Source: Nitrososphaerota archaeon (lineage in GTDB: Archaea; Thermoproteota; Nitrososphaeria; Nitrososphaerales; Nitrosopumilaceae). Taken from it: a stretch of 24,890 nucleotides of DNA. A model generated the notes under the pieces. It was given only the letters and a program-made list of their open reading frames with translations. It was not told where the DNA came from and ran no database searches. Positions 8,465 to 24,890 of this stretch are shown in pieces. The number at the start of each line of letters is the position of its first letter. Position 1 is the first letter of the stretch. The position numbers and the translations under genes are program-made. Location: contig JACZSC010000008.1 in assembly GCA_022574415.1 (NCBI GenBank), forward strand, positions 1-24,890, in the 5' to 3' direction.

Positions 8465-8465
8465 T

Positions 8466-9968: not shown

Positions 9969-9974
9969 TGTTTA

Positions 9975-10499: not shown

Positions 10500-10534
10500 T
10501 TTTCTGAATCTCAGTACAATTTCTTGTATTTTGT

Positions 10535-10544: not shown

Positions 10545-10564
10545 TTTGTTATGATATTAATCGT

Positions 10565-11098: not shown

Positions 11099-11164
11099 TT
11101 AATCGATATAGTCTTAATGTATAAAGTACCTTAATGTATTTTGAATTGATATAATTCAAAAATA

Positions 11165-12946
11165 TCAAACAGAGTGTTTATCAAAATAATTTAATGATAA
11201 AGGAAATGATTCATTCATAATTTTCTCATCAATAGACTTGATTTGCCCTAACCATAATCTTTTACGATCGGCATTAAGATTAACTTCTCTTTCATATTCT
11301 TTGATCTTACCAATCTCTGAAATGTTATCCTGTAAAATAGAAGAACGAAGTCTAGCACTACGAAGCAATCTAATTTTCATAATTAGTTTTCCATCTTTTT
11401 CATATGTCTGAAGATTTTCAATGTCTCGAGTTCCAAGTCTACCGAGACCACGTTGTTTCCATTTTCCATTATAACGATAAAATCCATTTTGTAAATAGAA
11501 AACATCATCAGCAGTATTCTCAAAAGAAAACTCACCTAATCTATTTGAATCAATATCTAGAAATTTTGTGACGCAAAGACTGTCAGTTGCAAAACTTACA
11601 ACATATCGTTCCAAGCCATATTTTTGCACAAATTTGTATAATTGAGCACGAGTTATGCCTGTAATTGTGGCAAAAATAACAGGATTAAATAAATTTCCTA
11701 TTTTAAATCGAATTCGCTCACCAGTTTTTCCATAGATGGAGTTTAGAATTATTTTAATTGGTAATTGTAGTGGATTCTTGTTTTGTTTTAGTTGTAATCT
11801 TTTTGTGTACATTTTTTCAATAAAATCTTTGAATGGAAAAAATTCTTTATCGGGAATAAATTGAAATGATTTCAAAATTTTATAATTAATGTTTTTACAT
11901 GCTCGTAACTCAGCCAGTGTGCAATAAGTTTGAAACTTTCCTGATGGGAATATAATAATATTATTTGCACGGAAAGGTAATGGTGGAATATATTTACAAT
12001 CAGAAATATTTACTTTAATTTTAAAAAAACCAAGCGTTGCATCACTTTGAATTTTATTTGATGATATCCATTGACCTTTTGTTATATCAGGAATTTTTGT
12101 TAATGCATGTGGATATGCTGAATTAATATCATAAAGATAAGCGGTTCCTATGTAGCCACGTTTTAGAATTTCAAATCTTCCACCAAAGTAACTCCTGTAA
12201 GCTAAATCTTGTATTTCATATGGTATGCAATCAAACTTTGGAATTTCAATATGATTATTGATTAGAACTTTTTCTGCAAGGTAACCAGAACTAATCCATC
12301 GTGCAGGATAAAATGAAAACGCATTATGAAATAAATTTATCCAGTGCTGTGATAATTCTTTAGTATATTTACAATCTGCAATACAATAATTTCTAACTTT
12401 AGTTTTATTTCTGTTATAATATCTTGGTGAAAATTGTGTACGTTCTTTTTTCATTAAAAGATAATCATTAGGTAGATCCTCAATGTTCTGTTGATATGCA
12501 TTAATCAATGAAGTATGATAGAACTGTGCAATATCAAAAAAGATAGAACTATGATGTCCTTTTCTGATGGCTAATTTCCTACTAGGAATATAATCTAGAG
12601 TATAGTCACCATAATGAAATCTCAATAATCCTGTCTTCTTGTAGGAATTGAGCTCTTCACCTAGCAGTTTGAGAATGACTTCAGCATCATAGGTGATATT
12701 ATAGAAAAAGTTCCATGCTCCTTGAAATTTCTTAGAAAATAGGAATTTTAGGCATGATCCAGGCGTGATTTTATCAAGGAATCGGCCATCAGAATCAGCT
12801 ATGAGGAAAGGAGTTCCCTCGTAGGTCTCAGTATCAAGACCATAAACTGTTCTAAGACTAGAACAAGCAAACCGCCTATCTTGATGAACTTTGGTTCGCA
12901 GTCTTCTAAGATCTTTGTAATCTGTTATGGGGATGGATTCTGCCAT
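11165..12946 (-). CDS. polB: Protein-primed family-B DNA polymerase (pPolB)
   Basis: 593-aa ORF. Exonuclease motifs: ExoI YGLDTETY, ExoII NITYDAEVI, ExoIII YCIADCKY. Polymerase motifs: A LYDINSAYP (DxxSxYP), B KIILNSIYGK (Kx3NSxYG), C SFATDSL (variant of YxDTDS). The compact size is typical of protein-primed PolBs. Confidence 0.92.
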   Translation of the reverse strand: MAESIPITDYKDLRRLRTKVHQDRRFACSSLRTVYGLDTETYEGTPFLIADSDGRFLDKITPGSCLKFLFSKKFQGAWNFFYNITYDAEVILKLLGEELNSYKKTGLLRFHYGDYTLDYIPSRKLAIRKGHHSSIFFDIAQFYHTSLINAYQQNIEDLPNDYLLMKKERTQFSPRYYNRNKTKVRNYCIADCKYTKELSQHWINLFHNAFSFYPARWISSGYLAEKVLINNHIEIPKFDCIPYEIQDLAYRSYFGGRFEILKRGYIGTAYLYDINSAYPHALTKIPDITKGQWISSNKIQSDATLGFFKIKVNISDCKYIPPLPFRANNIIIFPSGKFQTYCTLAELRACKNINYKILKSFQFIPDKEFFPFKDFIEKMYTKRLQLKQNKNPLQLPIKIILNSIYGKTGERIRFKIGNLFNPVIFATITGITRAQLYKFVQKYGLERYVVSFATDSLCVTKFLDIDSNRLGEFSFENTADDVFYLQNGFYRYNGKWKQRGLGRLGTRDIENLQTYEKDGKLIMKIRLLRSARLRSSILQDNISEIGKIKEYEREVNLNADRKRLWLGQIKSIDEKIMNESFPLSLNYFDKHSV

Positions 12947-13251
12947 ATAGCATCAGGAATTGAAACTTCTTGTCCTCGCTTTCGTTTTCCAAATTGTCTT
13001 CTAATATCTAAATATTTTAAGTCAGGAAAATTATCTCGGATTAATCTAATGTAACGATGGTATTTTTCTAAAGATGATGAACGTTTACTAACTTTTGGTT
13101 CAGGTGCAACAGTTACTTTTGTTTGTTTTTCTAATCTTTCTAATGCTTTTTGTGTTCTGGAACGAAGTATTCGTACTTCATTATTATTTGGAAATAACTT
13201 TAATGCATCAAGTCTTTTTAAAAGTTTATTTCTTTGTTCTTCTAAACTCAT
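12925..13251 (-). CDS. Hypothetical basic protein (108 aa) immediately upstream of polB
   Basis: Overlaps the polB start by 22 nt, indicating operon coupling. Lys/Arg-rich. No motif recognised. Confidence 0.6.
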   Translation of the reverse strand: MSLEEQRNKLLKRLDALKLFPNNNEVRILRSRTQKALERLEKQTKVTVAPEPKVSKRSSSLEKYHRYIRLIRDNFPDLKYLDIRRQFGKRKRGQEVSIPDAIWQNPSP

Positions 13252-13280
13252 AGTATCACCAAAAAAATATGAAGGTTAGT

Positions 13281-13622
13281 CTAGGTTTTTCCTAGACTAA
13301 ATCTTCGTATTGGTCTATTGTTTCTACTTTTGTCAAGATAGGTCTCGATTGTAAGTTTATCACCAATTTTGATAATGTTGTCTTTACCACCTCTAGTCCA
13401 CTGATTTAGGAGTGAACTGTTTTTTGATTCATGGCTTTTTAGAGGAACAACAATTGTATTCCATTTGTTATTCTCAAAGATTTCAGCTTCAACATTGATA
13501 GAATATTCTGTTTCAAATGTTTCAAGCTCTTTTACACGAATCTTTATTGTGTCTGGTTTGTCTTTGTCTTTGCTTTTGTATTGCCCCCACTTTAAAAAAG
13601 GAGGATAAAGAGAATCACTCAT
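13281..13622 (-). CDS. Hypothetical protein (113 aa), polB operon
   Basis: Its start overlaps the stop of the upstream AbrB-like gene by 4 nt (ATGA). The sequence looks beta-rich. No motif recognised. Confidence 0.6.
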   Translation of the reverse strand: MSDSLYPPFLKWGQYKSKDKDKPDTIKIRVKELETFETEYSINVEAEIFENNKWNTIVVPLKSHESKNSSLLNQWTRGGKDNIIKIGDKLTIETYLDKSRNNRPIRRFSLGKT

Positions 13623-13822
13623 TTTGGAATTCTCCTTTTTGTTTTGATGGGAGTTAGAATCAATCTCCCATCTTGTGACATGGAAACATTTACTTCCATG
13701 TTTTTACTGAGATAGTTCTCAGTGAATGTCTTGGGCAAAGTTACCACTTTAGAAAAATTCATGGTACTGACTTTTCTTGTGCCCAAGTCTAGATTTTTGA
13801 CTATGGATTTTACTTTAGACAT
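13619..13822 (-). CDS. AbrB/SpoVT/MazE-like swapped-hairpin DNA-binding protein
   Basis: 67-aa ORF. SKVVTLPKTFTENYL...VSMSQDGRLILTPI matches the (V/I)T(I/L)PK ... G.(I/L)(I/L)L.P pattern of AbrB-type domains. It is the first gene of the leftward polB operon. Confidence 0.5.
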   Translation of the reverse strand: MSKVKSIVKNLDLGTRKVSTMNFSKVVTLPKTFTENYLSKNMEVNVSMSQDGRLILTPIKTKRRIPK

Positions 13823-13872
13823 ATTATGCTGTTAGTAAATACCTTAAAATGGGATACTAATGTAGCCCACTT

Positions 13873-14559
13873 ATGGAACTGACCTACGGTATTGGACCAA
13901 ACAAAACCAAGTATTGCAAATTTAAGGCTAAAAACTCTGAATTTGTTTACGATATTGACGGAATTCGCAAAGGAAAAAGATTCAAACATGAACAACGCCG
14001 AGAATTAATTATTAATATTATTGCAAGAAATCACATTAGTCATAATCATTTACTACATCTTACAACAGCATTAGGAAAAATTGCAAAAAAAACTACAGTA
14101 AAAATACTCAAAGAACTAGAAGATGATCGACTAATTGAATCAGAGCAGGAAGGAAATAGTTCTAATTCTATAAAAACATGGATGATAAAATCACCAGAAT
14201 CTGAAATTGAGAAACATGCAAAAAAAGAAACACAAAACATCATTGCAAGTTTGCAAGAATACATTCAAACCATAGAGAAAAAATTTGAAAAACTAAACCA
14301 AGTTGAAAAAGATTATGCAATGGCCAATCTTTTAGACATATTACATAGTTGGCAACCAATTATTGAAATTATAAATCATGACACTAGAATTAAAAATGAA
14401 AAGAAAAAGTTTGACTCTCTTCTAAATCAAGCTTATAATATTTTAAAATATGAAAAACGTGATGGTATAGATACAAGATCATTTTTGCGTAGGTTACTGC
14501 ATCTTAAAGCATCAGAACCAATGGTTATTATGAATAATTTTTTAGAGGAAATTAAATGA
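13873..14559 (+). CDS. Putative winged-helix protein with helical C-terminal domain
   Basis: 228-aa ORF. ISHNHLLHLTTALGKIAKKTTVKILKELEDDRLIESEQ is HTH/wing-like. The stop overlaps the start of the next gene by 4 nt. Confidence 0.55.
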   Translation: MELTYGIGPNKTKYCKFKAKNSEFVYDIDGIRKGKRFKHEQRRELIINIIARNHISHNHLLHLTTALGKIAKKTTVKILKELEDDRLIESEQEGNSSNSIKTWMIKSPESEIEKHAKKETQNIIASLQEYIQTIEKKFEKLNQVEKDYAMANLLDILHSWQPIIEIINHDTRIKNEKKKFDSLLNQAYNILKYEKRDGIDTRSFLRRLLHLKASEPMVIMNNFLEEIK

Positions 14560-15125
14560 ATGACTTTACACCTAATCCATTAGTTTTACAAGAACTTGAA
14601 AAAGTCAGTCAAGTTTGGGATAACCTGATAGAAAACATGCATACAAAATCGAATAAAGATAGAATTACATCAATTCTAGTTCAAGTAATGCTTGAGTACT
14701 ACATTGATAGAATTTTGATTATTAACAAAGTTGATTCGCCTAAGAAAATTTACAAGATGAGATATGATAGTACACTCGAAAAATTAAAAGAACTCAATTT
14801 AATTGATAACAACCTTGAACATGACCTGCTGAATTTCTATGAAATTAGAAACATATATGCACATGAAATTGAAATTCATGAAAAACAGATTTTGGATTTA
14901 GTTAATGGTGTTAAAACAGTAAAGGACCCTACTAGATTTATAGAGAAAGATAGATTTCAGCAAGTTTTTCAAATTATTTTACGGCAAGTTCAGAGAACAT
15001 TTGAAGCAGTTCTAGTTAGGGAACAAGAAAAAAGTGAAGAAAATACTCACTCTATATCTCAAAATAATTCTTCTTTTTCACGTAATAGTCTACGATATTG
15101 TGAACAGCAATTTTGGCTATTGTAA
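14556..15125 (+). CDS. HEPN-superfamily (MtlR/DUF4145-like) protein
   Basis: 189-aa ORF. LEKLKELNLIDNNLEHDLLNFYEIRNIYAHE carries the Rx4H HEPN signature in the context typical of MtlR-like HEPN domains. The last ~24 codons run antisense through a cas1 3' relic, so the C-terminus may be chimeric. Confidence 0.5.
   Translation: MNDFTPNPLVLQELEKVSQVWDNLIENMHTKSNKDRITSILVQVMLEYYIDRILIINKVDSPKKIYKMRYDSTLEKLKELNLIDNNLEHDLLNFYEIRNIYAHEIEIHEKQILDLVNGVKTVKDPTRFIEKDRFQQVFQIILRQVQRTFEAVLVREQEKSEENTHSISQNNSSFSRNSLRYCEQQFWLL
15052..15123 (-). pseudogene. Relic of a second, diverged cas1 3' end
   Basis: It translates to ITIAKIAVHNIVDYYVKKKNYFEI*, against the intact Cas1 C-terminus ITIAKIAVQNLVEFCTGKQKEFRI*. 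Nucleotide identity is nearly complete over ACAGCAAT(T/C)TTGGCTATTGT. Homology stops exactly at the TAATCCTGAAAATTC motif (15124). Confidence 0.8.
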
Positions 15126-15144
15126 TCCTGAAAATTCTTAATTC
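15124..15144 (+). repeat. AATCCTGAAAATTCTTAATTC motif copy
   Basis: Exact consensus, directly abutting the cas1 relic. Confidence 0.85.
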
Positions 15145-15271
15145 ATAGTTTGAGATAGAAACTTTATGCCTGTCTGTGAAAAATGCGGTCAGCCAGCTTC
15201 TCAATGTATTACATGAGATGAAGCGAAGGGCGTAACTAGAATACATTATTTTTGCAAAAATCATAATCCAA

Positions 15272-15291
15272 AATCTGAAAATTCTTAATTC
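15272..15291 (+). repeat. AATC(C)TGAAAATTCTTAATTC motif copy, promoter-like
   Basis: AATCTGAAAATTCTTAATTC, followed by TTAGTTTCAACTAGAAAATTCATG. The same leader precedes the ATG at 23977. Confidence 0.85.
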
Positions 15292-15312
15292 TTAGTTTCA
15301 ACTAGAAAATTC

Positions 15313-15552
15313 ATGACCGATGATAAAAAAATGAAAATCATGTGCAAATGGTGTAATGTTTCTAAAACCTGTCACATCGTTAGTCAAGAAATTACAGATC
15401 ATCATGGACACTATGGGATAGATAGTGTTATGATGGCCAAAGTCAAAATTCACAAGCATTTCAAAGGAAAAAATTACTGCAAAGGCTCAGATAGAACAAT
15501 TACTGTACCTCTAGATAAGATACTAAAAGATAATGAAAAGAATAGAGATTAG
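15313..15552 (+). CDS. Small Cys/His-rich protein (79 aa)
   Basis: CKWCNVSKTCH...DHHGH...CKG. Preceded by the conserved leader and followed immediately by the AGATTCTAAACTCTTTTT relic. Confidence 0.55.
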   Translation: MTDDKKMKIMCKWCNVSKTCHIVSQEITDHHGHYGIDSVMMAKVKIHKHFKGKNYCKGSDRTITVPLDKILKDNEKNRD

Positions 15553-15568
15553 ATTCTAAACTCTTTTT
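15551..15568 (+). repeat. AGATTCTAAACTCTTTTT: copy of the cas1 stop-codon region
   Basis: Identical to 15773-15790, which encodes the last Cas1 codons KEFRI* on the minus strand. Confidence 0.85.
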
Positions 15569-15770
15569 TTCACAAAAATTAATGAAAAACGTGCTCAAGT
15601 GTTCGTACCAGTGCGTATTCTCGGATCAAAGTCAAACAGTAAACCTTTATCCACTTACTCGAAATGTTTGACTATGGGAGTAGGTCGAACACAAAGACAT
15701 TATTGTAACAAGTGTCATCTAAAACGCCCTAAATGTATCTGTAAAAAACAGTAAACGAGATTAATAATTC

Positions 15771-16850
15771 TTAGATTCTAAACTCTTTTTGTTTTCCAGT
15801 ACAAAACTCAACTAAATTCTGTACAGCAATCTTGGCTATTGTTATTTCATGACAAGACTTTAGACCGTCTTTGGTCTTTGCTCCATGTTTAGACGCATAG
15901 CGTCTTTCTTTCTGGAATGTTCTTTCAAGTAATTCTAAGAACCGTCTAATCAAATTATAGTCTAAAACAACTAAACCCTCTTTTGTAAAGGCGTAATCTT
16001 TCTTGTAGATTCTATGCTCTTTATTGGTTTCATTAGCTAACATGTATGCAGAATAATCAACAAGCCATCTGAACGGCTCTATCAAGTCATAAACTAACGG
16101 CTGAAAACTAATGTGTTCTTTGTGATAGAATCCAAAGTATGCATCTAGACCCATTCCGTTGATATATTTGGAAATCTCTCCAGCTAAAACCGAATAGCCG
16201 TAATTCAAAAGCCCATTAATGACATCACTAGCAGTTCTTTTTGAAATCTTCTGACTAGACTGATTTCTTGAAACAAATCCATGCCTTTCAGGAATTAGTT
16301 TTGAATATTCAATAAAGTACGCTCGACCAGAACCAGCCTCTAAACCCAATTCAGAACGTATTGAAACTTGTCTTAGATTACCCTCAAGAGTTTCAATTCC
16401 TAAATTCAAGTCAGTCCTTTCTACAGACTTTAAGAATCTGATCTGCGATTGTAATTTTGCTTTAACAATCTGCTTTGAAAGGTATCTTCTCTTTTCTGTA
16501 TCCCTAAAGGTGTCATACTGAGCCATTCGATATTTTGTCGCAGTGTTTGATTCCATTACACCATTAATCATAGAAACTGGCTTTCCGTAGGTATCTAGTA
16601 GAATAAGATTTCGATTATGTTGATTTAGTAGGCTCATGGCTTCGGTTGAAACGTAGCCTTTACCAGATAGAACGATTTTTTCATAAGGAAGATTATTGAT
16701 GAACCATTCTTCTGATTCGGATTCTTTGAATGGGTCGTAATTGTTCTTTAGAACAAGTTTGTTATCTTTTACAGAAACAGAAAAGCCGTAACCCTTGAGA
16801 AATTTTACGTTGTAATGACTGTGTTGACCTTTCTGCGTCATAACGCACAT
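15771..16850 (-). CDS. cas1: Cas1 homologue (casposase-type Cas1-solo)
   Basis: 359-aa ORF. Cas1 signatures are ILLDTYGKP (N-terminal beta domain), GLEAGSGRAYF (catalytic Glu region), NGLLNYGYSVL, and YFGFYHKEH...LVYDLIEPFR (catalytic His and Asp/Glu). A C-terminal extension is present. The gene ends 58 nt from the right TIR. Confidence 0.93.
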   Translation of the reverse strand: MCVMTQKGQHSHYNVKFLKGYGFSVSVKDNKLVLKNNYDPFKESESEEWFINNLPYEKIVLSGKGYVSTEAMSLLNQHNRNLILLDTYGKPVSMINGVMESNTATKYRMAQYDTFRDTEKRRYLSKQIVKAKLQSQIRFLKSVERTDLNLGIETLEGNLRQVSIRSELGLEAGSGRAYFIEYSKLIPERHGFVSRNQSSQKISKRTASDVINGLLNYGYSVLAGEISKYINGMGLDAYFGFYHKEHISFQPLVYDLIEPFRWLVDYSAYMLANETNKEHRIYKKDYAFTKEGLVVLDYNLIRRFLELLERTFQKERRYASKHGAKTKDGLKSCHEITIAKIAVQNLVEFCTGKQKEFRI

Positions 16851-16907
16851 TTGATCAAAATTATTACTTAACGAATTTCCAACAAATCATAACGTGCATT
16901 ATAACGT

Positions 16908-16960
16908 GATTACCCGTCACATTTTTCTTCGTGAGAGGGGGGGATTGCCTTTTTATCGAT
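16908..16960 (-). repeat. Casposon right terminal inverted repeat (TIR-A, right)
   Basis: Exact reverse complement of 8466-8518. Subterminal direct sub-repeats (C/T)ATAACGTG x2 lie at 16887-16908. Confidence 0.95.
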
Positions 16961-16961
16961 T

Positions 16962-17040
16962 ATCGATAAAAAGGGAAAGTCCCCCTCCCACGCACGAATT
17001 ACGCTTATGACTTGCGTTATGACGTGAGTTGGTTTGTTGG
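16962..17040 (+). repeat. Diverged casposon-type end (TIR-B) lying head-to-head with TIR-A right
   Basis: ATCGATAAAAAGGGAAAGTCCCCCTCCCACGCACGAATTACGCTTATGACTTGCGTTATGACGTGAGTTGGTTTGTTGG. It shares with TIR-A the ATCGATAAAAAGG terminus, a C-rich block, two CG(C)TTATGAC sub-repeats and a terminal ...TTTGTTGG (cf. CCAACAAA at 16879). Confidence 0.8.
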
Positions 17041-17051
17041 AAAGGTTAACA

Positions 17052-17066
17052 GCTCGTATCAAATGT
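17052..17066 (+). repeat. GTTCGTATCAAATGT-family motif copy (GCTCGTATCAAATGT)
   Basis: One mismatch. Preceded by GTTAACA, as the 8423 copy is preceded by GTTAACG. Confidence 0.8.
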
Positions 17067-17104
17067 TAATTAGAATAAAAAAGAGAAAGGATTTTAGGTT
17101 CTGA

Positions 17105-17572
17105 TTACGGAGCTGGTCTCATCGAAACATCTGCGTTTCCAAATCCGCCACCTGAAACCCAGAAGTTTTGTACTCCATTAAATGCATTACCGTCAATGTC
17201 CTTGGTGTTTATTGCTACAACGACTTTGTGTGTGGAACCATCACTAAATGCTGCTTCAAAAACCACAATGCCCATACCAGTACTGGTAGGACCGCCTGGT
17301 GGACAACACATGACGGTGATCAATTTGGTTGCGTGCCAATTACCTGAAGTACTTGTAGCAGCAAATGAACCTCCTGCTCCTATTTGGCCACCCTTTTTCC
17401 AAGCTCCTTGACCCGACATATCGATTCTTGGCGTGTCCCCATCCGAGAAACTAAAGGCTACAGCGCCTTTTGGAGTCGGAGAGGGAGCGTAAGCTTGTTG
17501 TGCCGAAAAGAGAAGCATGATGGCTATTCCAGCAATTATGGATGCTATTAGAATTGTTTTTGCCATGCCCAA
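17105..17572 (-). CDS. Small secreted/anchored Gly-rich protein (155 aa)
   Basis: N-terminal helix MGMAKTILIASIIAGIAIMLLF. Visibly more GC-rich than its neighbours. No motif recognised. Confidence 0.65.
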   Translation of the reverse strand: MGMAKTILIASIIAGIAIMLLFSAQQAYAPSPTPKGAVAFSFSDGDTPRIDMSGQGAWKKGGQIGAGGSFAATSTSGNWHATKLITVMCCPPGGPTSTGMGIVVFEAAFSDGSTHKVVVAINTKDIDGNAFNGVQNFWVSGGGFGNADVSMRPAP

Positions 17573-17684
17573 CCGATCACTTGATCCTGAGACTAATTAA
17601 TGATGATCTAATGTGATTCATTTCATAATTTCATTATAACGCTAGTCATGAGGCATAAACCGTTCATCAAATGTCTCATTTACA

Positions 17685-17699
17685 GTTCGTATCAAATGT
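17685..17699 (+). repeat. GTTCGTATCAAATGT motif copy, with degenerate copy CGTTCATCAAATGT at 17661-17674
   Basis: Exact consensus in tandem with a degenerate copy 24 nt upstream. Confidence 0.8.
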
Positions 17700-17819
17700 C
17701 AACAGAATTACCGAACTGTCTACTCTTTTAAGACCCACCCCATTTTTGGTTTTAATTTGGAACCTATCTAAGCAAATTTTATTCCGGGTCTAGAAAATTA
17801 TCAAACATTTCTTTTGTTC

Positions 17820-18431
17820 TTAGTATATAGTTCTACGGTCCAATCTGTCTTGTTCCATTATCTTTAAGATTTTTTCAAAAGCTTTTGTAGAAAATGAATA
17901 CATGTCAAGCAGAGTAAGATATCGTTCATCCCTTTTATGGTCTTTCATCCATTCATTTAATCGTTCAGTAGTATGCGTAGCAAGACTTCTAGTAGAAGTT
18001 ATTAATTTGTTATGTGTATGTAAAATCTTAGAATCAATTTCAAGTATCAAACGCTCTAGTGCTAATTTTTCTTGGAAAGCTTCTACTTTATCTAACTGTT
18101 CCCTTAGTCTAGAGCGTTGAATGTCTAATCTTTGAAGATGGATTAGAACTTCAGTTGTAGAATCAAAAGTATTTCCATTTACTATAATTTTTGAATACCA
18201 GTAATCAATATCGCCGTTAACAGTATTGCGATTAATTTTCATAAGTTCGGCAATCTTTCTTGCTGAATATCCATAGTCAAAATGAAGTCGGTAGACTTCT
18301 TTTCTTCTAGAATCTCTTTCATTTTTAGAATATGGACCACCTTTTTTGAGATTTGGTACAGTTTGAGATAGTTTTTCATTTTCGTCTAAAAAATCAGAAG
18401 TTACTTGAGGTAATTTACTCATGATTTCCAA
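17820..18431 (-). CDS. Putative HTH DNA-binding protein (203 aa)
   Basis: YGYSARKIAELMKINRNTVNGDIDYW is a helix-turn-helix-like segment, followed by a coiled-coil-like C-terminal half. Confidence 0.5.
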   Translation of the reverse strand: MEIMSKLPQVTSDFLDENEKLSQTVPNLKKGGPYSKNERDSRRKEVYRLHFDYGYSARKIAELMKINRNTVNGDIDYWYSKIIVNGNTFDSTTEVLIHLQRLDIQRSRLREQLDKVEAFQEKLALERLILEIDSKILHTHNKLITSTRSLATHTTERLNEWMKDHKRDERYLTLLDMYSFSTKAFEKILKIMEQDRLDRRTIY

Positions 18432-18702
18432 ACTCCTCGCACACCACCGATACTATACTTTTTTCACCAAGTTCTGGTTGCGTCATTCTTTTCAGTTCAT
18501 AAAGTGCAACAAAAAATTCTTCTTTTTTGTATTGTATCATTATTTGCGATCCTAAATTATCATATTTTTCAATTAGTTTGTCAAAATTCTGCAAAGATTT
18601 TAAATCATAACCATTACCATGATTAAAATGTCCTACAAATGATTGCAATGTTTCAAATGTTCTATTGTATTCACTGACAAGTTCATGAAGATTCATGCTC
18701 AT
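18415..18702 (-). CDS. Hypothetical protein (95 aa)
   Basis: Overlaps the downstream HTH gene by 17 nt, indicating operon coupling. No motif recognised. Confidence 0.5.
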   Translation of the reverse strand: MSMNLHELVSEYNRTFETLQSFVGHFNHGNGYDLKSLQNFDKLIEKYDNLGSQIMIQYKKEEFFVALYELKRMTQPELGEKSIVSVVCEEFGNHE

Positions 18703-18748
18703 TTTATGTATGTAAAGTATTAATACTAATCTACACTATAACTGCATA

Positions 18749-19738
18749 TTGTATTTTGTGACGACGTATCTAAGAATCGTTGATGAACTAAAAGCAGTTT
18801 ATTCAATCCCTCCTGATCCGCGCATCATAGAAAGAGAACTCAATAAAATACGATGGAGAGACGCTAAAACAAAGCATTTCCTTGCTATCCTTAAAGTACT
18901 ATCAGAAAAAGGCTCGTGTACCATCAAGGATATCGTTGATAATGATGGATTTTCAAGATCCTCAAATCGTGTAAAAGCTCGTCAAGATATGTATTCTAGG
19001 ATGATAAATGGTAAGTTATCACAGAAAATTCCTGGCCTAATTTCTCGCTTCCTAGTAGTTGAAGATGGAACTATCATGAAAAGCAAACCTACAACAAAGT
19101 ACAAGCTTTCTCTTTTTGGCATTCTTTATTCAATTCGTGTATTTTCAAACATCAATACAAGAATTGCTCCACAGGTAAAACATGAAGAAACTATAGAGAT
19201 AAAAGACAATAGTGGTTCTTCTAGTGAATCAGAGATTAAATCTATTCTGGATGTACTGGCTAAAAATTATGTAGAGACGTTACCATTAATTTTTGGAAAA
19301 TGGAATTTTTGGAAAAATAATTTTGGAAGTCTAGTTGATTATCTTGCGTCCATGTCTAGATTGAACAAGGATTCATTAGAAAATTTGATTACTGATCCGT
19401 TGTACAACGTTAGGCCATTTCATATGTATTATGGTATGCGTAAACAATCTGGTCGTGCAGATGAAGTAACAATGTGGTTCATAACAAAGATTGAAAACAG
19501 TATTTCGCATCCAAAAAAATTTAGAACTACGTTGAAAAAAGACACTGATATTTTTAGATGGTATTCTGAATTTATAGCAAAGTTACTAATGGTAAAGAAA
19601 GAGGAAATCTGGCGAATCAAGACAGTTGAGTACATGCTAAAGGGTGAATTTGAAAAGCTTGGAAGCGTATCAGAAAAACTATTAAAGTTTCAAGGACTCG
19701 ACATTACAGAAGATAAGGTTAGTACTCTTCTCTATTAA
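18749..19738 (+). CDS. Hypothetical protein (329 aa), possible N-terminal wHTH
   Basis: TTG start as given by the ORF track. HFLAILKVLSEKGSCTIKDIVDN is HTH-like. Otherwise unrecognised. Confidence 0.55.
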   Translation: MYFVTTYLRIVDELKAVYSIPPDPRIIERELNKIRWRDAKTKHFLAILKVLSEKGSCTIKDIVDNDGFSRSSNRVKARQDMYSRMINGKLSQKIPGLISRFLVVEDGTIMKSKPTTKYKLSLFGILYSIRVFSNINTRIAPQVKHEETIEIKDNSGSSSESEIKSILDVLAKNYVETLPLIFGKWNFWKNNFGSLVDYLASMSRLNKDSLENLITDPLYNVRPFHMYYGMRKQSGRADEVTMWFITKIENSISHPKKFRTTLKKDTDIFRWYSEFIAKLLMVKKEEIWRIKTVEYMLKGEFEKLGSVSEKLLKFQGLDITEDKVSTLLY

Positions 19739-19955
19739 AGAACTAATTCGCCAAAAAATAAATTATGAATATATGAAACTCATACTTATTTTAATTTAAA
19801 AAGACAGCGATCCGATCAGAACTATTTTGCGAGGTGAGTAACGCAAACAAAATAACTGTTTTAGAATTTAGTATACGATGCGTTTTATTATTTCAATTAT
19901 AATTTTCAAAAAATGGCATAGTTTGGCATAGTTATGATAACGAGGCAGTCGATTC

Positions 19956-20255
19956 CTATTTCGTAGTAATCGATTTTCCTTCTTCGGAAATGGCTTTTTT
20001 GATTAAGGAAGAACTATCTTTCATGATTTTGTTAAATTCTTGAATATCCTCAAGATCAGGAGTTTTTTTCTGATTTTGATATGTTTTCATAAATTCAGAA
20101 TAAACATTACCTACAATAATTCCAAAGGTAGTATCCGATACGGATTCAATTTCCGGAACAAAATCTTCTGCAATTTGCTTGTACGAGGACACCTCATCAG
20201 TATAGTACTGAATTAAATTTTCAATGAACTCTTTAGTTTCCTTTGAAATTGCCAT
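19956..20255 (-). CDS. Hypothetical acidic protein (99 aa)
   Basis: Clean ORF with no motif. Confidence 0.5.
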   Translation of the reverse strand: MAISKETKEFIENLIQYYTDEVSSYKQIAEDFVPEIESVSDTTFGIIVGNVYSEFMKTYQNQKKTPDLEDIQEFNKIMKDSSSLIKKAISEEGKSITTK

Positions 20256-20304
20256 CGTTCTACCTAAATGCGACTGGTTTATTTAATTACATTCCAAATT
20301 TTGT

Positions 20305-20766
20305 TTGACGATGTGGAAGCTTGAATTGGATGAAAATTATTTTCGAATTTTTGATTCTAAAAAACAAATTGCAGGTTATTTTGATCCTGATTATGGTGAA
20401 ATCAATCCTCCAGAAAAAGAAACCGAATTAATTGAACAGATGCACAAAAATCGAGAAAAAATAAACGGCGGCTTGCTAATGGTTCCAATGTTAAAGTTTG
20501 GAATATTTGATTCAGACTATGAATCTGATATTGCAGGTTTACAAAAGCAAATAGATTTGGTGAATGAGCGACTTTTTAAGTGGAAAGAATTCCTTTCTGA
20601 AACAAATAACCATGCCCATTCAATTAGAATCTCTCACACTGATCAAGATATGCTAAGTATTACAATACCTTTCAAATTTTCAAAACCTACTCCTTTAGAT
20701 AAAAATGAAATTCTAAATGAAATCGAACCTATCTTAAATTTAATGCACAAACGAGATTTGGTATAG
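20305..20766 (+). CDS. Hypothetical protein (153 aa)
   Basis: TTG start in the track (ATG two codons later). No motif. The 3' end overlaps the convergent gene by 38 nt. Confidence 0.45.
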   Translation: MTMWKLELDENYFRIFDSKKQIAGYFDPDYGEINPPEKETELIEQMHKNREKINGGLLMVPMLKFGIFDSDYESDIAGLQKQIDLVNERLFKWKEFLSETNNHAHSIRISHTDQDMLSITIPFKFSKPTPLDKNEILNEIEPILNLMHKRDLV

Positions 20767-21484
20767 ATCTGCTTGCATATCTTGTCAAGATTACGTATGT
20801 AGAAACAGAACCAGCTAATAATAACAAAGAACCAAAAGGAAATTCTGGAACTGGCGCAAATTCTTCCGATTCAGTCACTAGTGCATAATCAACTATCATG
20901 TTAGTTTGTGTTTTTTCTGTCACTGGAATTAAAAAGAAAACCTCATCATTTGATTTGAGATAATCAGGCTTGACCAATGATTTTGACACCGCAGCAACAT
21001 TTCCATCTTTATCATATAGTGTAGCAATAATTGCAATTGTATTTGCTGTAATATCGCCTCTATTTACAACGGTTCCAGTAATCACCAAGTTGTTAAAACT
21101 ATCTTGTGAAATCTTGGATGAAGTAATGTCCATCACTTGACTTTTAGGCGTTGTCACTTTGTAATCGATTTCAATGGAATAACTATCCACCAATTTTGCT
21201 TTTTGACCCAAAATTACTAGGTCAAAAGGGGCCTTCATGCCAGGCATTATTGTGTTAATCATGGAACTTGTAGTCATCGTATCAATTACCTCATTTTCAG
21301 AAAACAACGTCACATGAATAACAATCTGGTTTAGTGGCATATCAAAATAATTTAGAATTTCTCCAACAACATGTAATGCCCCATCACTGCCAAGATATTG
21401 CTGATCATTTTGGATTGAAACATCTGCCCATGCATTAGAAAAACCAAACAATATTGAGATAACCAAAAAAAGATATTTTTTCAA
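20729..21484 (-). CDS. Secreted protein with PEF/PEFG-CTERM-like archaeosortase sorting signal
   Basis: Signal peptide MKKYLFLVISILFGFSNAWA. The C-terminus PVPEFPFGSLLLLAGSVSTYVILTRYASRS has the motif, TM helix and basic tail. Confidence 0.75.
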   Translation of the reverse strand: MKKYLFLVISILFGFSNAWADVSIQNDQQYLGSDGALHVVGEILNYFDMPLNQIVIHVTLFSENEVIDTMTTSSMINTIMPGMKAPFDLVILGQKAKLVDSYSIEIDYKVTTPKSQVMDITSSKISQDSFNNLVITGTVVNRGDITANTIAIIATLYDKDGNVAAVSKSLVKPDYLKSNDEVFFLIPVTEKTQTNMIVDYALVTESEEFAPVPEFPFGSLLLLAGSVSTYVILTRYASRSIPNLVCALNLR

Positions 21485-21517
21485 TAATTAACTTTCTGTT
21501 TATTTTATTTAAAGAAG

Positions 21518-22012
21518 TTATGGGCTGATTCCTTGCTGTGCCGCTTTGTATTTTCCTAATGCTGCGATTTCATATTCAAAAGATTCCTGAAAAAGTGAGT
21601 CGGAATGAATCTTGAATGACTCATCACCAATCTCGATCCATTTTATGTACTGCATATTACTTTCAATTTGCGTTTCAGTTGATAATTTGAAAAGATCAAC
21701 CGATGCAATAAAGGACTCTGGGGATGTTAATTCATCATATTTTGGCAAAAGTGTTTCTAAATCTAGAATATTTTTTTGAGAAAATCCTAATAGCTGTTCT
21801 TTGGTCAAATCTCCTTCTTGCCACTGAACTGTCTTTGATTCAAAATCATTTTGTAATCTTTTCACTTCATCTTGAATCTGTTGTAGTTCATTCCCAAAAT
21901 TGAACCCTTTAATCTTTACCTGATCTGCAGAGTAATTGTAGGAAATGAAAGCAACTAAAATAACTGTTGCAATTACGGCTAACGTAATATTTTGCTTCTT
22001 TCTTTTTTTCAA
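21518..22012 (-). CDS. N-terminally anchored hypothetical protein (164 aa)
   Basis: MKKRKKQNITLAVIATVILVAFISY anchor helix. No other motif. Confidence 0.6.
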   Translation of the reverse strand: MKKRKKQNITLAVIATVILVAFISYNYSADQVKIKGFNFGNELQQIQDEVKRLQNDFESKTVQWQEGDLTKEQLLGFSQKNILDLETLLPKYDELTSPESFIASVDLFKLSTETQIESNMQYIKWIEIGDESFKIHSDSLFQESFEYEIAALGKYKAAQQGISP

Positions 22013-22065
22013 AACTAATCTATGATATTTGAATTTATATGTGATATTAACGCAAGGATAATAAT

Positions 22066-22109
22066 CTAAGAATTAAGAATTTTCAGGATTAATAGTTCGT
22101 ATCAAATGT
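22066..22109 (-). repeat. Composite repeat (AATCCTGAAAATTCTTAATTC motif + GTTCGTATCAAATGT motif), inverted partner of 23918-23960
   Basis: The reverse complement ACATTTGATACGAACTATTAATCCTGAAAATTCTTAATTCTTAG matches ACATTGATACGAATTGTTAATCCTGAAAATTCTTAATTCTTAT, with 1 indel and 3 mismatches. Confidence 0.85.
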
Positions 22110-22153
22110 AAAAGTGATAAAAAATAGATGAAACACTATACTATTGAAAAGCA

Positions 22154-22984
22154 TTGACATACCAACCATATGAGGGCAAAATTATTTATCAGAAAAACCT
22201 GACCGATGATCTTGCAATATTTAGACTTGAACTATCAGATAAGAGCAAAATATTAGATTTCAAGCCAGGTCAATTTGTACCGCTAGGAGTGAAAATAAAA
22301 GACAAGGTGGCGTACAGAGCTTACTCGATTTCATCACCTCCTGAAGAAAGAAGATATTATGAATTTTACATCAGATGGGCAACAAAGCCGGTTTTAGGTA
22401 AAATAACCAGCGCTCTTTTTACTTTGAAAAAAAATAAGCTTATCTTCTGGCGAAAACCTGCAGGAGTTTTTACCATCGAAGATAAAAAACCGAATGGAAC
22501 CACTGAGAGTAGGCAGATGATTCTCGTTTCTTCAGGAACAGGTATTGCCCCATTTATCAGCTACATACTACACTTGAGAAAAGTAGGTTCGAAAAGAAAG
22601 ATCGTTTTGCTTCATGGTGCCAAATATGTTGCAGAGTTAGGTTACAAAAATATGCTTGAAAGACTAGCATCTGAAACTAGAGACAATTGGGATTTCACCT
22701 ACATACCTACGGTTAGCCAGCTGGATCATCCCTCATCTACGGGGTGGACAGGAAATGTTGGACGAGTGGGTGACTTACTAATAGATATCGACAATCACAG
22801 GTCAGAACTAGAAAAAAAATTAGGAAAAAATGTCACTCCAAAAAATTCATTCTTTTACATTTGCGGATACAATAATACAATAAATAGAGTCATTTCATTT
22901 TTGACCCCACTAGGTTTTGTTTCCAATCGAAATAAAAGAAAAGACGGATCCTTTGACATAAAGTCTGAATCATACGGAGAGTAA
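22154..22984 (+). CDS. Ferredoxin-NADP+ reductase-type FAD/NAD(P)-binding oxidoreductase
   Basis: 276-aa ORF (TTG start in the track). FAD-binding RAYSISS (RxYS) motif, NAD(P)-binding VSSGTGIAPF motif and C-terminal FYICGY-type motif. Confidence 0.8.
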   Translation: MTYQPYEGKIIYQKNLTDDLAIFRLELSDKSKILDFKPGQFVPLGVKIKDKVAYRAYSISSPPEERRYYEFYIRWATKPVLGKITSALFTLKKNKLIFWRKPAGVFTIEDKKPNGTTESRQMILVSSGTGIAPFISYILHLRKVGSKRKIVLLHGAKYVAELGYKNMLERLASETRDNWDFTYIPTVSQLDHPSSTGWTGNVGRVGDLLIDIDNHRSELEKKLGKNVTPKNSFFYICGYNNTINRVISFLTPLGFVSNRNKRKDGSFDIKSESYGE

Positions 22985-23042
22985 TCTTCTAAATAATTAT
23001 CTTTGAAATTTGATTATTCAGACTAGAACAAATCTGTTGACA

Positions 23043-23084
23043 GTTCGTATCAAATGTAATTCAGGTCTAAACGAATTTATCGAT
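23043..23084 (+). repeat. Second copy of 42-bp flank 'X'
   Basis: 42/42 identical to 8423-8464. Confidence 0.95.
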
Positions 23085-23165
23085 AAAGAGTGAAAATAGA
23101 ACTTCCCTCTCCGACGCACAAATTCCTATTATAACTATCGTTATGACGTGAGTTTGTTTTGTTGG
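23079..23165 (+). repeat. Solo casposon-type end (TIR-B'), related to 16962-17040
   Basis: ATCGATAAAGAGTGAAAATAGAACTTCCCTCTCCGACGCACAAATTCCTATTATAACTATCGTTATGACGTGAGTTTGTTTTGTTGG aligns along its length with TIR-B (shared CGACGCAC/CCACGCAC, CGTTATGACGTGAGTT, TTTGTTGG). No partner end and no cas1/polB are nearby. Confidence 0.8.
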
Positions 23166-23483
23166 AGATTTGAAAAAAGAAAAACAACGATTAAACTAAA
23201 AAAATAGAGTAAAATGTCTATTCAATAGTATTTTAAAAGATACCAATTCTGTTGTAATACATTGCCAGAACATACTAAAGAATGTGAGTATAGAATCACT
23301 CATGACTTTAGGCATGATAACTGTTTTTGTGAATGTCATGACAAAGGGAAGTATCATGGAAGAATTACCAAAAATGTTAGAAAAAGCAATACCAATACTA
23401 CAAAAGCAAGCAAAGATTAGTTAGGCAACTTAATTTGTTTTTCTAAATCTCGTAATTTCCTTGATAAATTATCACAATTCCTC

Positions 23484-23527
23484 TAAGTTCTAAATTATCT
23501 TTTTGTAATCCTGAAAATTCTTAATTC
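23484..23527 (+). repeat. cas1-3'-end-like relic fused to AATCCTGAAAATTCTTAATTC motif
   Basis: TAAGTTCTAAATTATCTTTTTGT (cf. TTAGATTCTAAACTCTTTTTGT at 15771-15792) is followed directly by AATCCTGAAAATTCTTAATTC (23507-23527). Confidence 0.7.
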
Positions 23528-23623
23528 ATTTCTGAAATAAATGTCGAATTAGGTCATTTTGTTAGATTTCAGTGGGTATTGCCTTTTATTGAGAGTAAAA
23601 AGACAAAGCACTAGGAATAAGAT

Positions 23624-23773
23624 ATGAAGTACATGTGTAGAACCTGTAAAAAAAAATGTGATGATATTATAGAACATTTGATGACAGTACACAAATTTTC
23701 AAAAACAACTATAGAATCTCAACTCAAAGCAAACCCAAATAGTTTTAACCATGCCTTTGAAAAATTAGAATAA
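23624..23773 (+). CDS. Possible mini zinc-finger protein (49 aa)
   Basis: MKYMCRTCKKKCDDIIEHLMTVHKF... has CxxC...HxxxH spacing like a C2H2 finger. It is below the ORF-track size cut-off and was found by manual translation. Confidence 0.35.
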   Translation: MKYMCRTCKKKCDDIIEHLMTVHKFSKTTIESQLKANPNSFNHAFEKLE

Positions 23774-23788
23774 ACATTCAATACGAAC
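23774..23788 (-). repeat. GTTCGTATCAAATGT-family motif copy (GTTCGTATTGAATGT on minus strand)
   Basis: The plus strand reads ACATTCAATACGAAC. Confidence 0.7.
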
Positions 23789-23917
23789 TGTTACAGAGTC
23801 TTTTTTTCTTTGAAATGGCTATTTGAAACACGGAAGCTGATAGCGTGCTTTGAATAACGCAACACGTTTATTCATTTGCTTGACTAATGTACCTCATGTC
23901 TTGTTGGCTTCCGTCTA

Positions 23918-23960
23918 CATTGATACGAATTGTTAATCCTGAAAATTCTTAATTCTTATG
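23918..23960 (+). repeat. Composite repeat, inverted partner of 22066-22109; also left arm of a ~25-bp inverted pair with 24357-24382
   Basis: See 22066-22109. TAATCCTGAAAATTCTTAATTCTTA versus the reverse complement of 24357-24382, TAATTCTGAAAATTCTTAATTCTTAA. Confidence 0.85.
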
Positions 23961-23976
23961 TTGATCTAGAAAATTC

Positions 23977-24315
23977 ATGAATTTTGAACTGAAAAAAACT
24001 CTGTCAATAAAGATAAAACGCTTAGATATGTTCCCAAATTACTTTTTTGGAATTGCTGAGATAAATGGAGAAGACTACAAGATTAACATTCAAGGTCAGA
24101 GTGTATTTACAAAAAATTCAATCAAATTGCCAATAAAATTTAAAGATGAAAAAGCATTATTACGTCTAAGCGGAATTAATGGTTCTTATTTTGAGGATAT
24201 TGTAAATTACGAAGGAAAATCAGAATGGATAGAAATAGGTTCTGATAGAATTTTGTTCTATTTGGCAGATCATCAAGACCAAATTAACATTATAGATGTT
24301 CTAAGTAGATTCTAA
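23977..24315 (+). CDS. Hypothetical protein (112 aa) in a repeat-bounded cassette
   Basis: Preceded by the same leader as 15313..15552 (CTAGAAAATTCATG). The stop lies inside an AGATTCTAAACTCTTTTT relic. Confidence 0.55.
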   Translation: MNFELKKTLSIKIKRLDMFPNYFFGIAEINGEDYKINIQGQSVFTKNSIKLPIKFKDEKALLRLSGINGSYFEDIVNYEGKSEWIEIGSDRILFYLADHQDQINIIDVLSRF

Positions 24316-24398
24316 ACTCTTTTTGTTTCATCCTGGACTCCTAAACCCTTTTTTTATTAAGAATTAAGAATTTTCAGAATTAAAAAAGAGTTTAGAAT
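24307..24398. repeat. Inverted pair of cas1-3'-end relics enclosing an inverted AATTCTGAAAATTCTTAATTC motif
   Basis: AGATTCTAAACTCTTTTT at 24307-24324, GAATTAAGAATTTTCAGAATT at 24361-24381, and AAAAAGAGTTTAGAAT at 24383-24398. Confidence 0.8.
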
Positions 24399-24410
24399 TT
24401 TATTTAGGTC

Positions 24411-24890
24411 CTAGAGGCGTAATTTAGATTCTTTATCAGATTTCTCAGAGTTATTCTTGACTTTCTTTGCTTCTAGTATAGATTCTCGCTCTGCTTTCTC
24501 AGCTTCTCGTTGTTGTTTCTCTGCTTCGAGTTTAGCTATTTGATCAGCCTGACGCTGAGCTTTCTCAGCGTCTAGTTGTAGTTGCTTGGCTTCTTGTTTA
24601 GCTAATCTATCAGCTTCCCTCTGAGCCTTGTCAGCTTCGAGTTTAGCTAGTCTATCAGTTTCTCTCTGAACTTTCTCTGCGTCACGTTGTTGTTTCTCTA
24701 ATTCTAATTGTAATTGCTTTGCTTCTTGTTTAGCTAATCTATCAGCTTCCCTCTGAGCCTTGTCAGCCTCTCGCTGTAGTTGCTTGGCTTCTTGTTTAGC
24801 TAATCTATCAGCTTCCCTCTGAGCCTTGTCAGCTTCTCGCTGTAGTTGCTTTGCTTCTTGTTTAGCTAATCTATCAGCTTCCCTCTGAGC
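24411..24890 (-). CDS. Coiled-coil tandem-repeat protein, C-terminal part (ORF continues beyond the window)
   Basis: Manual minus-strand translation gives ...AQREADRLAKQEAKQLQREADKAQREADRLAKQEAKQLQ... ending ...KSDKESKLRL* with the stop at 24411-24413. It is open to the window edge. Confidence 0.7.
   Translation of the reverse strand, partial: AQREADRLAKQEAKQLQREADKAQREADRLAKQEAKQLQREADKAQREADRLAKQEAKQLQLELEKQQRDAEKVQRETDRLAKLEADKAQREADRLAKQEAKQLQLDAEKAQRQADQIAKLEAEKQQREAEKAERESILEAKKVKNNSEKSDKESKLRL
24530..24890. repeat. 66-bp tandem repeat (22-aa coiled-coil period)
   Basis: GTTTAGCTAATCTATCAGCTTCCCTCTGAGCCTTGTCAGC recurs at 24596, 24728, 24794 and 24860 (spacing 66 or 132), with diverged units between and before. 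Confidence 0.85.

Follow-up and report, generated by a model that had tools for sequence, protein, structure and literature searches.

The window analysed here is a 24,890-nucleotide (nt) stretch of contig JACZSC010000008.1 from a Nitrososphaerota archaeon (assembly GCA_022574415.1); its sequence is thaumarchaeal, with a G+C content of about 33%. It contains a family-1 casposon with its cas1 gene and, within and beside this element, copies of three short sequences: a 27-nt block that we term the 5′ core (TTAATCCTGAAAATTCTTAATTCTTAG), a 3′ module (TTAGATTCTAAACTCTTTTT), and an 18-nt quasi-palindrome, motif B (ACATTTGATACGAACTGT), which often precedes the core. A first-pass annotation of the same DNA had described small open reading frames (ORFs) as cassettes with one module at each end and had linked these cassettes to cas1. 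Our analysis indicates that both modules are probably local members of lineage-specific families of short modules, delimiting self-contained micro-gene expression cassettes that are swapped by recombination. The module system is chromosomal and clade-wide and is not a casposon feature. We found no prior account of these repeats in the literature searched.

A search with the 22-mer TAATCCTGAAAATTCTTAATTC, allowing up to three mismatches, returned seven matches to the 5′ module in the window, against 0.00 expected from 100 dinucleotide-preserving shuffles. Four lie on the plus strand (15123, 15270 with three mismatches, 23506 and 23934) and three on the minus strand (22070, 24361 with one mismatch, and 8838 with two), confirming the copies noted earlier on both strands, whose coordinates were off by 1–2 nt. 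The 18-mer AGATTCTAAACTCTTTTT, used as the query for the 3′ module, matched four times against 0.01 expected by chance, at 15551, 15773 and 24307 on the plus strand and, with one mismatch, at 24383–24400 on the minus strand, the last being a copy that the first-pass annotation did not list. A profile scan placed eight copies of motif B, seven of the core and four of the 3′ module within 7.2–24.4 kb; the first 7 kb are free of all three. Motif B in the window is a repeat already picked up by a general repeat search (families D9 and D14). Across about 135 copies of the core that were compared, information drops to approximately zero beyond positions −6 to +21, and the alignments of both modules display an invariant block between unrelated flanks, so the similarity is not mere AT-richness, an objection that had been anticipated. 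Chance and low complexity are ruled out by the shuffle controls together with this sharp information profile.

A near-identical leader, ...TAGAAAATTCATG, follows the modules at 15270 and 23934 and leads, as first described, into two ORFs of 79 and 112 amino acids (aa), ORF79 and ORF112, whose proteins are unrelated (BLASTP E = 3.8). The position TTGT|TAATCC, originally taken as the breakpoint with neighbouring sequence, turns out in the wider family to be the junction of motif B (...GAACTGT) and the core; an alternative sequence ahead of the core reads ...TAAATCGGATC. At the other end of the cassettes, the TAG of ORF79 lies just before the 3′ module and the TAA of ORF112 within it. The two ORFs use different frames, and the module is therefore conserved as DNA rather than as coding sequence. 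The cas1 gene lies on the minus strand, so that the plus-strand module at 15773–15790 is antisense to the end of its coding sequence, ...KQKEFRI*; the last seven cas1 codons coincide with a 3′ module.

The same cassettes occur in other contigs (loci designated L), and homology breaks exactly at the modules, bearing out the proposal that small ORFs sit in cassettes bounded by both. The ORF79 cassette (15304–15568) is 87–88% identical to L104, L141 and L148, three contigs with three different right-hand neighbours; the 3′ module is kept, and homology stops exactly at its end. Upstream, the ORF79 homologues differ in sequence from the window and begin with GTG; the core has therefore been joined to the window ORF79 at the start codon. 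The ORF51 cassette (approximately 15573–15790) is 91–94% identical to L098, L135, L185 and L124 and partially present in L132. Its homology stops at ...CTCTTTTT, beyond which lie at least five different right-hand neighbours, cas1 among them; L098 has the same module–ORF51–module layout, with a spacing of 220 nt versus 222 nt in the window. The ORF112 cassette and L123 agree at 100% over 367 nt, up to ...CTCTTTTT, and then diverge: L123 runs on into TAATCCTGAAAATTCTTAAAATTAACATTTGATACGAGC, comprising core and motif B, whereas the window runs into unrelated sequence. Finally, the Zn-ribbon unit (15123–15291), bounded by the two cores, matches six loci. Its product, MPVCEKCGQPASQCIT*DEAKGV...HNPKSENS, has a TGA where the six homologues have Trp, which makes it a likely pseudogene, or a candidate for read-through.

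Beyond the window, at least 126 copies of the 3′ module were found in at least 120 metagenome contigs (L091–L210), with unrelated sequence on either side. Most metagenome contigs are 1–5 kb long, and the loci of the genome scan described below are pieces of metagenome-assembled genomes (MAGs) of at most 8 kb. Among the 120 contigs listed, 7 have a detectable Cas1 match, and about 9–16 module copies, roughly 10%, resemble cas1 ends. Of the 126 listed copies, 42 contain the end of a forward ORF at least 40 codons long, compared with 5% in the control. Every listed copy contains CTCTTTTT(T/G), and the run of five to seven T is in keeping with an oligo-T terminator, which has at least five T directly after the stop. 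Because it offers a stop in two reading frames whichever strand is read, together with this oligo-T run, the module probably acts as a terminator, as the first-pass annotation had proposed. The modules at 24307–24324 and 24383 are an inverted pair able to form a 17-bp stem (z of about −1.6 to −1.9) and are most simply regarded as the terminator modules of two convergent genes.

About 16 of the listed 3′ module copies retain extra cas1-like bases (GTTTTCC), for which either direction of origin is possible. That the module is a mere relic of local cas1 decay was an idea initially based on GKQKEFRI being a native C-terminus of several casposases and on the lack of the module in core-bearing MAG loci; it was dropped, as at least 120 contigs hold copies with unrelated flanks. 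The last residues of Cas1 relatives are GKQKEFRI or other endings irrespective of overall identity (P0001, at 93%, and P0002, at 91%, differ), and this switching of the C-terminus indicates that the cas1 3′ end behaves as a junction, or breakpoint. The 3′-module contigs also hold further recurrent modules, CAATACGCTTAAGTT (12 loci, upstream of ORF79 homologues) and GAAATTATTTTTTGGGAAGGATG (8 loci), as well as a common gene start, ATGAAACCTGTAATAATTATCGCAATAGC, in 13 loci.

For the 5′ core, we scanned 185,579 species genomes with the 20-mer ATYCTGAAAATTCTTAATTC and obtained 86 stretches; 11 Nitrosopumilales MAGs account for 68 of these, with more than 130 core copies in all, and include NP_theta_1 (about 20 loci), NP_theta_2, B51T1B5, B2D1T2 and B12T1B11. 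The other stretches are single, chance-like matches in unrelated bacteria. Motif B is present in 79 exact copies in 43 loci. Using tblastn with the window proteins, we found no homologue of the window PolB in the 68 core-bearing thaumarchaeal loci, and Cas1 was represented only by one distant homologue (29% identical) and one 38-aa fragment; among the neighbours are chromosomal genes, for instance UDG and genes resembling aRF1 and purK. The comparison of window proteins with the 86 and 120 loci rules out casposon-specific modules. Nor are the modules an integral, conserved part of casposons: L087 and L088, the closest relatives of the resident element (Cas1 93% identical), share 15607–16960 with the window, and to the left of approximately 15607 they carry other genes and no core. 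The proposed link to cas1 and casposons is thus not upheld, with the 68 loci almost devoid of cas1 and polB and only about 10% of the listed 3′ copies being cas1 ends. What the first-pass annotation had named as evidence against its reading, modules flanking ordinary core genes genome-wide without any link to cas1-bearing elements, holds in part: they are dispersed largely without such a link, but the genes they flank are small accessory ORFs. A viral promoter set was rejected as well, since copies sit among chromosomal genes and viral scans gave only isolated matches: 2.9 million viral contigs yielded no match for the 20-mer, three single matches for a 17-mer and six for the 3′ module, and four scans of viral collections returned 0–8 each.

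The core copies form arrays of strikingly uniform polarity. Within all 36 other loci with multiple copies (2–7 each) the core has a single orientation, the window being the sole mixed case. In these loci, ORFs of at least 100 codons are divided 259 versus 201 between the strands, and the 80 inter-core units comprise 53 with a forward gene and 25 with a reversed gene, several of the reversed genes being conserved across loci. Start-to-start spacing ranges from 147 to 4578 nt, with a median of about 500 nt. Core orientation also agrees in five pairs of separate pieces, the two members of each pair coming from the same contig. The window itself contains a 39-nt inverted pair of motif B plus core at 22067/23920, which, together with its mixed core orientation, would fit an inversion.

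Homology between loci breaks preferentially at the core. In comparisons between loci, 189 of 611 internal ends of high-scoring segment pairs fall within the core ±5 nt, which accounts for 1.4% of bases, an enrichment of more than 20-fold. One 156-nt cassette is seen beside six different neighbours. The two halves of the core segregate, the TTCTTAG... half going with the downstream cassette and the left half with the upstream one; the left half often codes the last residues of the ORF upstream (...PENS* or ...SENS*) plus its stop codon. Presence/absence variants were found for a 211-nt cassette (L058 versus L051, flanking duplication TCTGAAAATTCTTAA), a 191-nt cassette (L052 versus L080, flanking duplication TGAAAATTCTTAA), a 1029-nt two-gene block before the purK-like gene (L070 versus L068, 13-nt repeat ATTTT(A/C)TTACAAT) and the ORF51 cassette (L185, repeat of about 21 nt). 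These flanking duplications vary in length, which argues for recombination via any short shared homology and against a transposase with a fixed stagger.

Archaeal promoters of leaderless transcripts have an A/T-rich box of 8 bp, centred about 26–27 bp before the start, and a purine-rich B recognition element (BRE) immediately upstream of it. In 25 of 131 core copies an ATG lies at one fixed offset, 21 nt past ...AATTC, and GTG or TTG occupies the same place in others; the same spacing is seen in L090, before a GTG-started 217-aa ORF convergent with cas1. Relative to the start codon, a BRE-like CTGAAAA lies at about −38 to −32 and a TATA-like TTCTTAAT at about −31 to −24, which is the BRE/TATA layout of a leaderless mRNA. 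The promoter role first suggested for the 5′ module fits this geometry, with its fixed start-codon distance in dozens of unrelated genes, and we infer that the core would serve as a promoter giving a leaderless mRNA that starts at or beside the start codon. The 75 ORFs downstream of the core fall into 57 families, with a median length of 53 aa, and many encode Zn-ribbon or small membrane proteins. The features mapped in the window are listed in Table 1.

Table 1. Positions of the casposon, modules, cassette genes and landing-site copy in the window
Feature	Position	Strand	Remarks
Family-1 casposon	8472–16954		Complete element: pPolB, cas1, inverted terminal repeats, 13-bp duplication
pPolB (protein-primed)	11165–12946	−	Pfam DNA_pol_B_2 match
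cas1 (family-1 casposase)	15771–16850	−	Pfam Cas_Cas1, E = 7.7e-46
5′ core	15122–15149	+	nhmmer E = 6e-09; TAA is stop of ORF 14556–15125; precedes Zn-ribbon likely pseudogene
5′ core	15272–15296	+	Left half codes ...PKSENS* of Zn-ribbon ORF; ORF79 ATG 21 nt past ...AATTC
5′ core	23505–23529	+	About 100 nt upstream of C2H2 mini-ORF
5′ core	23932–23958	+	After degenerate motif B (23920–23935); ORF112 ATG 21 nt downstream
5′ core	22065–22092	−	Preceded by motif B (− strand) at 22089–22112; upstream of ORF 21518–22012 (−)
5′ core	24358–24383	−	Directly after − strand 3′ module; no own gene downstream
5′ core, degenerate	8837–8858	−	Convergent gene junction, left part of casposon
Motif B	8417–8441	−	Start of casposon leader
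Motif B	7288–7304, 17046–17070, 17679–17702, 23038–23061	−	Profile scan
Motif B	23781–23793, 23920–23935	+	Profile scan
3′ module	15548–15569	+	ORF79 TAG stop abuts; right homology boundary of ORF79 cassette
3′ module	15770–15791	+	Reverse complement of final cas1 codons (KQKEFRI*); right boundary of ORF51 cassette
3′ module	24304–24325	+	Holds ORF112 TAA stop; 100% identity to L123 stops exactly at 24324
3′ module	24382–24400	−	1 mismatch; just downstream of − strand coiled-coil gene
Zn-ribbon mini-gene cassette	15166–15291	+	In-frame TGA; likely pseudogene
ORF79 cassette gene (79 aa)	15313–15552	+	Homologues with 87–89% aa identity in L104, L141, L148
ORF51 cassette gene, Cys-rich micro-ORF	15599–15754	+	Present in five other contigs
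C2H2-type 48-aa ORF cassette	23626–23772	+	Motif B (23781–23793) directly after
ORF112 cassette gene (112 aa)	23977–24315	+	Cassette 23958–24324
Unoccupied landing-site copy	23036–23160	+	Motif B′, leader ending ...AACGAATTT, ATCGATAAAGAGT, then degenerate stretch resembling a terminal inverted repeat

We propose that a cassette would consist of the core promoter, a leaderless ORF, and then the stop/oligo-T module (or motif B), with motif B ahead of the core as a possible operator. The 20–27-bp modules would be the sole sequence common to otherwise unrelated cassettes; as functional elements they would be conserved, and they would supply 13–27 bp of portable homology at which cassettes could be inserted, lost, swapped and occasionally inverted. 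The casposon cargo region beside the cas1 3′ end would be one of many cassette recipients. As the pathway of exchange we favour homology-driven recombination, on account of the variable length of the flanking duplications.

Several points weigh against this account. The 3′ module is absent from 0.5 Mb of 5′-core MAG loci, so that the two families co-occur only partly. The TATA-like TTCTTAAT deviates from the TTTAWATA consensus, and ORFs were called simply, stop-to-stop or from the first start. As the core is conserved and co-oriented also before reversed genes, promoter function alone is insufficient, and the uniform orientation suggests a directional process, such as site-specific recombination or replication-linked insertion, over plain homologous recombination. 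No recombinase was found, with the MAG contigs covered in 8-kb pieces. Given the strict co-orientation and the conservation of gene-less cores, we tentatively keep a directional, possibly enzyme-catalysed process in consideration, although we doubt it.

The leading alternative to homology-driven exchange at the modules is a dedicated site-specific cassette system, integron-like but independent of attC, in which the core would be the site, crossover would fall near TTCTTAA|TTCTTAG, the recombinase is hypothetical, and promoter activity would be a by-product or second function. We regard such a system as rather unlikely. It would account for the co-orientation of the core in all 36 multi-copy loci whatever the gene strand, for the retention of the core even without a following gene, and for the segregation of the core halves with different cassettes; the median array spacing and the minority of reversed cassettes resemble integron cassettes. 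The core can also be read as a 21-bp imperfect palindrome, CTGAAAATT-CTT-AATTCTTAG, with 7 of 9 arm positions matching. However, protein-family scans found no integrase or transposase among the window ORFs (20 with Pfam, 10 each with NCBIfam and PHROGs) or among 10 array neighbours (Pfam), giving only weak helix-turn-helix (HTH) and ribbon-helix-helix (RHH) matches, and the core shows no attC-type hairpin. Folded as single-stranded DNA, the consensus of motif B plus core gave z = 0.42 and −0.24 for the two strands relative to shuffles, and Rfam had no match in the window at E ≤ 1, so that an attC or other structured element was rejected. Moreover, the duplications range from 13 to about 21 nt and do not always correspond to the core, and the cassettes appear to have their own promoters.

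An unlikely explanation, in our view, is a pure regulon, in which small genes would be regulated together, the modules being no more than their conserved promoter/operator and terminator, and the mosaicism would be incidental. The fixed start-codon spacing, the upstream quasi-palindrome as a potential operator, and the HTH and RHH genes encoded nearby are all compatible with it, and there is a precedent in the BRE/TATA-centred sequences before small anti-defence genes of archaeal viruses (PMC11065993). Yet a regulon leaves the reversed genes after cores, the uniform orientation and the breakpoint enrichment unexplained, and the exact 20-mer is limited to a narrow set of uncultured MAGs. The window ORF79 has a core, whereas its homologues have another upstream region joined at the start codon, and the comparison of L123 with the window provides a first example of cassette polymorphism at a module junction.

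Insertion by the casposase has to be weighed against the structure of the resident casposon and its target. In the window, Cas1, protein-primed PolB, terminal inverted repeats (TIRs) and a duplicated target site (TSD) of 13 bp are found together only at 8472–16954. The termini are inverted repeats of about 50 nt that open with AAAAAGGCAATCC, the right end reading ...GGATTGCCTTTTT, within a 63-nt inverted repeat that is 98% complementary (8456–8518 and 16908–16970). A base-level reading sets the limits of the element at an exact 13-bp direct repeat, ATCGATTATCGAT, at 8459–8471 and 16955–16967. The site is an intergenic landing pad opening with motif B′, rather than the ef-2 gene. The relative L089 has the same casposon ends as the window and ATCGATAAAGAGT on each flank, and the casposon in L090 (Cas1 70% identical) adjoins the EF-2 gene, with the junction ...TGATAAAGAGT|AAAAAGGCAATCC. 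The AR1 casposase target, defined by experiment, is ATTGATAAAGAGT (PMC8464041); the landing sites of L089 and L090 agree with it, and that of the window is nearly identical. In the unoccupied copy, the leader and ATCGATAAAGAGT part spans 23036–23091, with 12 of the 13 positions of ATCGATAAAGAGT shared with the AR1 target. As no tRNA gene lies in the window, tRNA-linked att sites were rejected.

The family-1 casposase integrates DNA of 7 nt to 4 kb and of almost any sequence at a leader plus 13-bp TSD target (PMC8464041), and it could in principle place cassettes at module-like targets, leaving flanking duplications. The enzyme is permissive for the inserted DNA and strict for the target. Several cassette-flanking duplications measure 13–15 nt, the L070 insertion lies at a leader-like ...AACGAATTT site, a unit of motif B plus core immediately precedes the casposon landing site, and the 3′ module end ...CTCTTTTT resembles the casposon terminus ...GCCTTTTT. 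Nevertheless, we consider this route very improbable: the core bears no relation to the AT(T/C)GATAAAGAGT target, some duplications measure 20–21 nt, the cassettes lack TIRs, and the core loci hold almost no cas1.

Least credible of all, and rejected, are non-autonomous transposons resembling MITEs (miniature transposable elements with inverted repeats), a possibility raised by the checks proposed in the first-pass annotation. Inverted core copies do enclose about 450 bp (23930–24386) and about 1.8 kb (22067–23958), and the smaller pair is real (23930–23958 and 24358–24386; 29 nt, 93% complementary), but its arm at 24358–24386 is part of the adjoining convergent gene and is missing where the ORF112 cassette recurs in L123 and L174, copies in the 36 other multi-copy loci are direct and never inverted, and the units are coding and have no constant TSD.

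Several further observations concern the casposon and its surroundings. The leader/TSD/TIR-like unit recurs at 16968–17045 in the window and in L010, L052, L066 and L185, which suggests either an old casposon end retained in the target or repeated leader-proximal insertion. The casposon of L089 (121–4530) measures only about 4.4 kb; its Cas1 is 85% identical, PolB was undetected by tblastn, and two additional 30-aa fragments resembling the Cas1 C-terminus lie at 2879–2968 and 3924–4022. A Fic/DOC gene (7358–8242, minus strand) lies between two repeat blocks (7274–7350 and 8375–8441), each composed of motif B′ and a 39-nt repeat (TCTATTGAGAC...TTTTAGAC), with the parts in opposite order left and right of the gene; a third copy of the block is located at 17669–17762. 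Positions 17820–18431 (minus strand) encode a protein of 203 aa whose HTH weakly resembles sigma-70 region 4, and homologues with 38–45% identity lie beside core arrays in the MAG loci L034, L080 and L086 and beside the L090 casposon, making it a candidate DNA-binding partner for the repeats. Elsewhere, a 656-aa glycosyltransferase-like ORF contains an internal 93-nt direct repeat (6326–6418 and 6587–6679, 90% identical) that duplicates an N-terminal CxxC...HDRTIRHEKKWYH motif, a 614-aa pentapeptide-repeat protein (105–1949, minus strand) shows 15-nt periodicity, and a coiled-coil gene with 66-nt tandem repeats (24420–24890, minus strand) runs past the right window edge.

Few ocean microbes are as abundant as ammonia-oxidising archaea, and the turnover of their flexible genome is poorly understood. 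Clade-wide modules of 20–27 bp would offer a simple, integron-like mechanism of gene flux in archaea. Tiny genes would become portable, each predicted to bring its own promoter, stop codon and terminator, and the modules also mark recombination junctions. Such a cassette system would account for the variable cargo that casposons carry beside cas1, and the core with its fixed 21-nt spacing would provide a sequence handle for real micro-proteins of 25–110 aa that gene callers overlook. A more speculative possibility, to which we attach low confidence, is a hitherto unrecognised, attC-independent cassette platform of marine Nitrosopumilales whose 27-bp site would combine promoter and directional crossover, so that expression-ready micro-genes could be captured, arrayed and exchanged, with casposons as one vehicle carrying cassettes from cell to cell and the casposase as a possible participant. 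If a dedicated recombinase or the casposase does take part, the finding would be relevant to how casposons and CRISPR arrays are linked in evolution.

Among known repeats, Correia/NEMIS, ERIC and REP/BIME elements (PMC3184786, PMC10969869) are likewise short, high-copy, lineage-specific and intergenic, with regulatory potential and an association with rearrangements. Those elements, however, are palindromes or have inverted repeats at their ends, and they usually form hairpins, whereas the core and 3′ module do not fold, and the present modules are direct, co-oriented and overlap stop and start codons. With the family-1 casposons of Thaumarchaeota (NitAR1-C1 and others; PMC4046053, PMC6563490, PMC8464041) the window shares a complete element and an AR1-like landing site, but the modules are not components of it, being missing from the cargo region of L087 and L088 and abundant without a casposon. 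The regulatory sequences of archaeal-virus early genes (PMC11065993) resemble our modules in having a near-identical BRE/TATA core, flanks conserved as well, before many unrelated, small, single genes of a mobile element and an adjacent palindromic, operator-like element. In contrast to these, the core described here is spread over the chromosomes of a clade and essentially absent from viral contigs, is strictly co-oriented, occurs also without a gene, and marks recombination breakpoints.

The nearest analogues, besides these viral sequences, are integron arrays, including the chromosomal super-integrons, whose VCR-type attC sites are near-identical, and archaeal integrons (PMC9668308): there as here, short, mostly unrelated ORFs lie between conserved, co-oriented sites, a minority of cassettes is reversed, content differs between relatives, breakpoints fall at the site, and some ORFs enter it. 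Core arrays accordingly show the co-oriented sites between short ORFs and the variable content that characterise the integron type. The unfolded core plus motif B nevertheless lacks the defining feature of attC, archaeal attC included (PMC9668308); the arrays have no attC hairpin, no IntI was found in the ORFs scanned, and the duplications vary in length. Furthermore, the core lies on the 5′ side of its gene and is promoter-like, so that these cassettes would be self-expressed, whereas those of integrons are driven by Pc.

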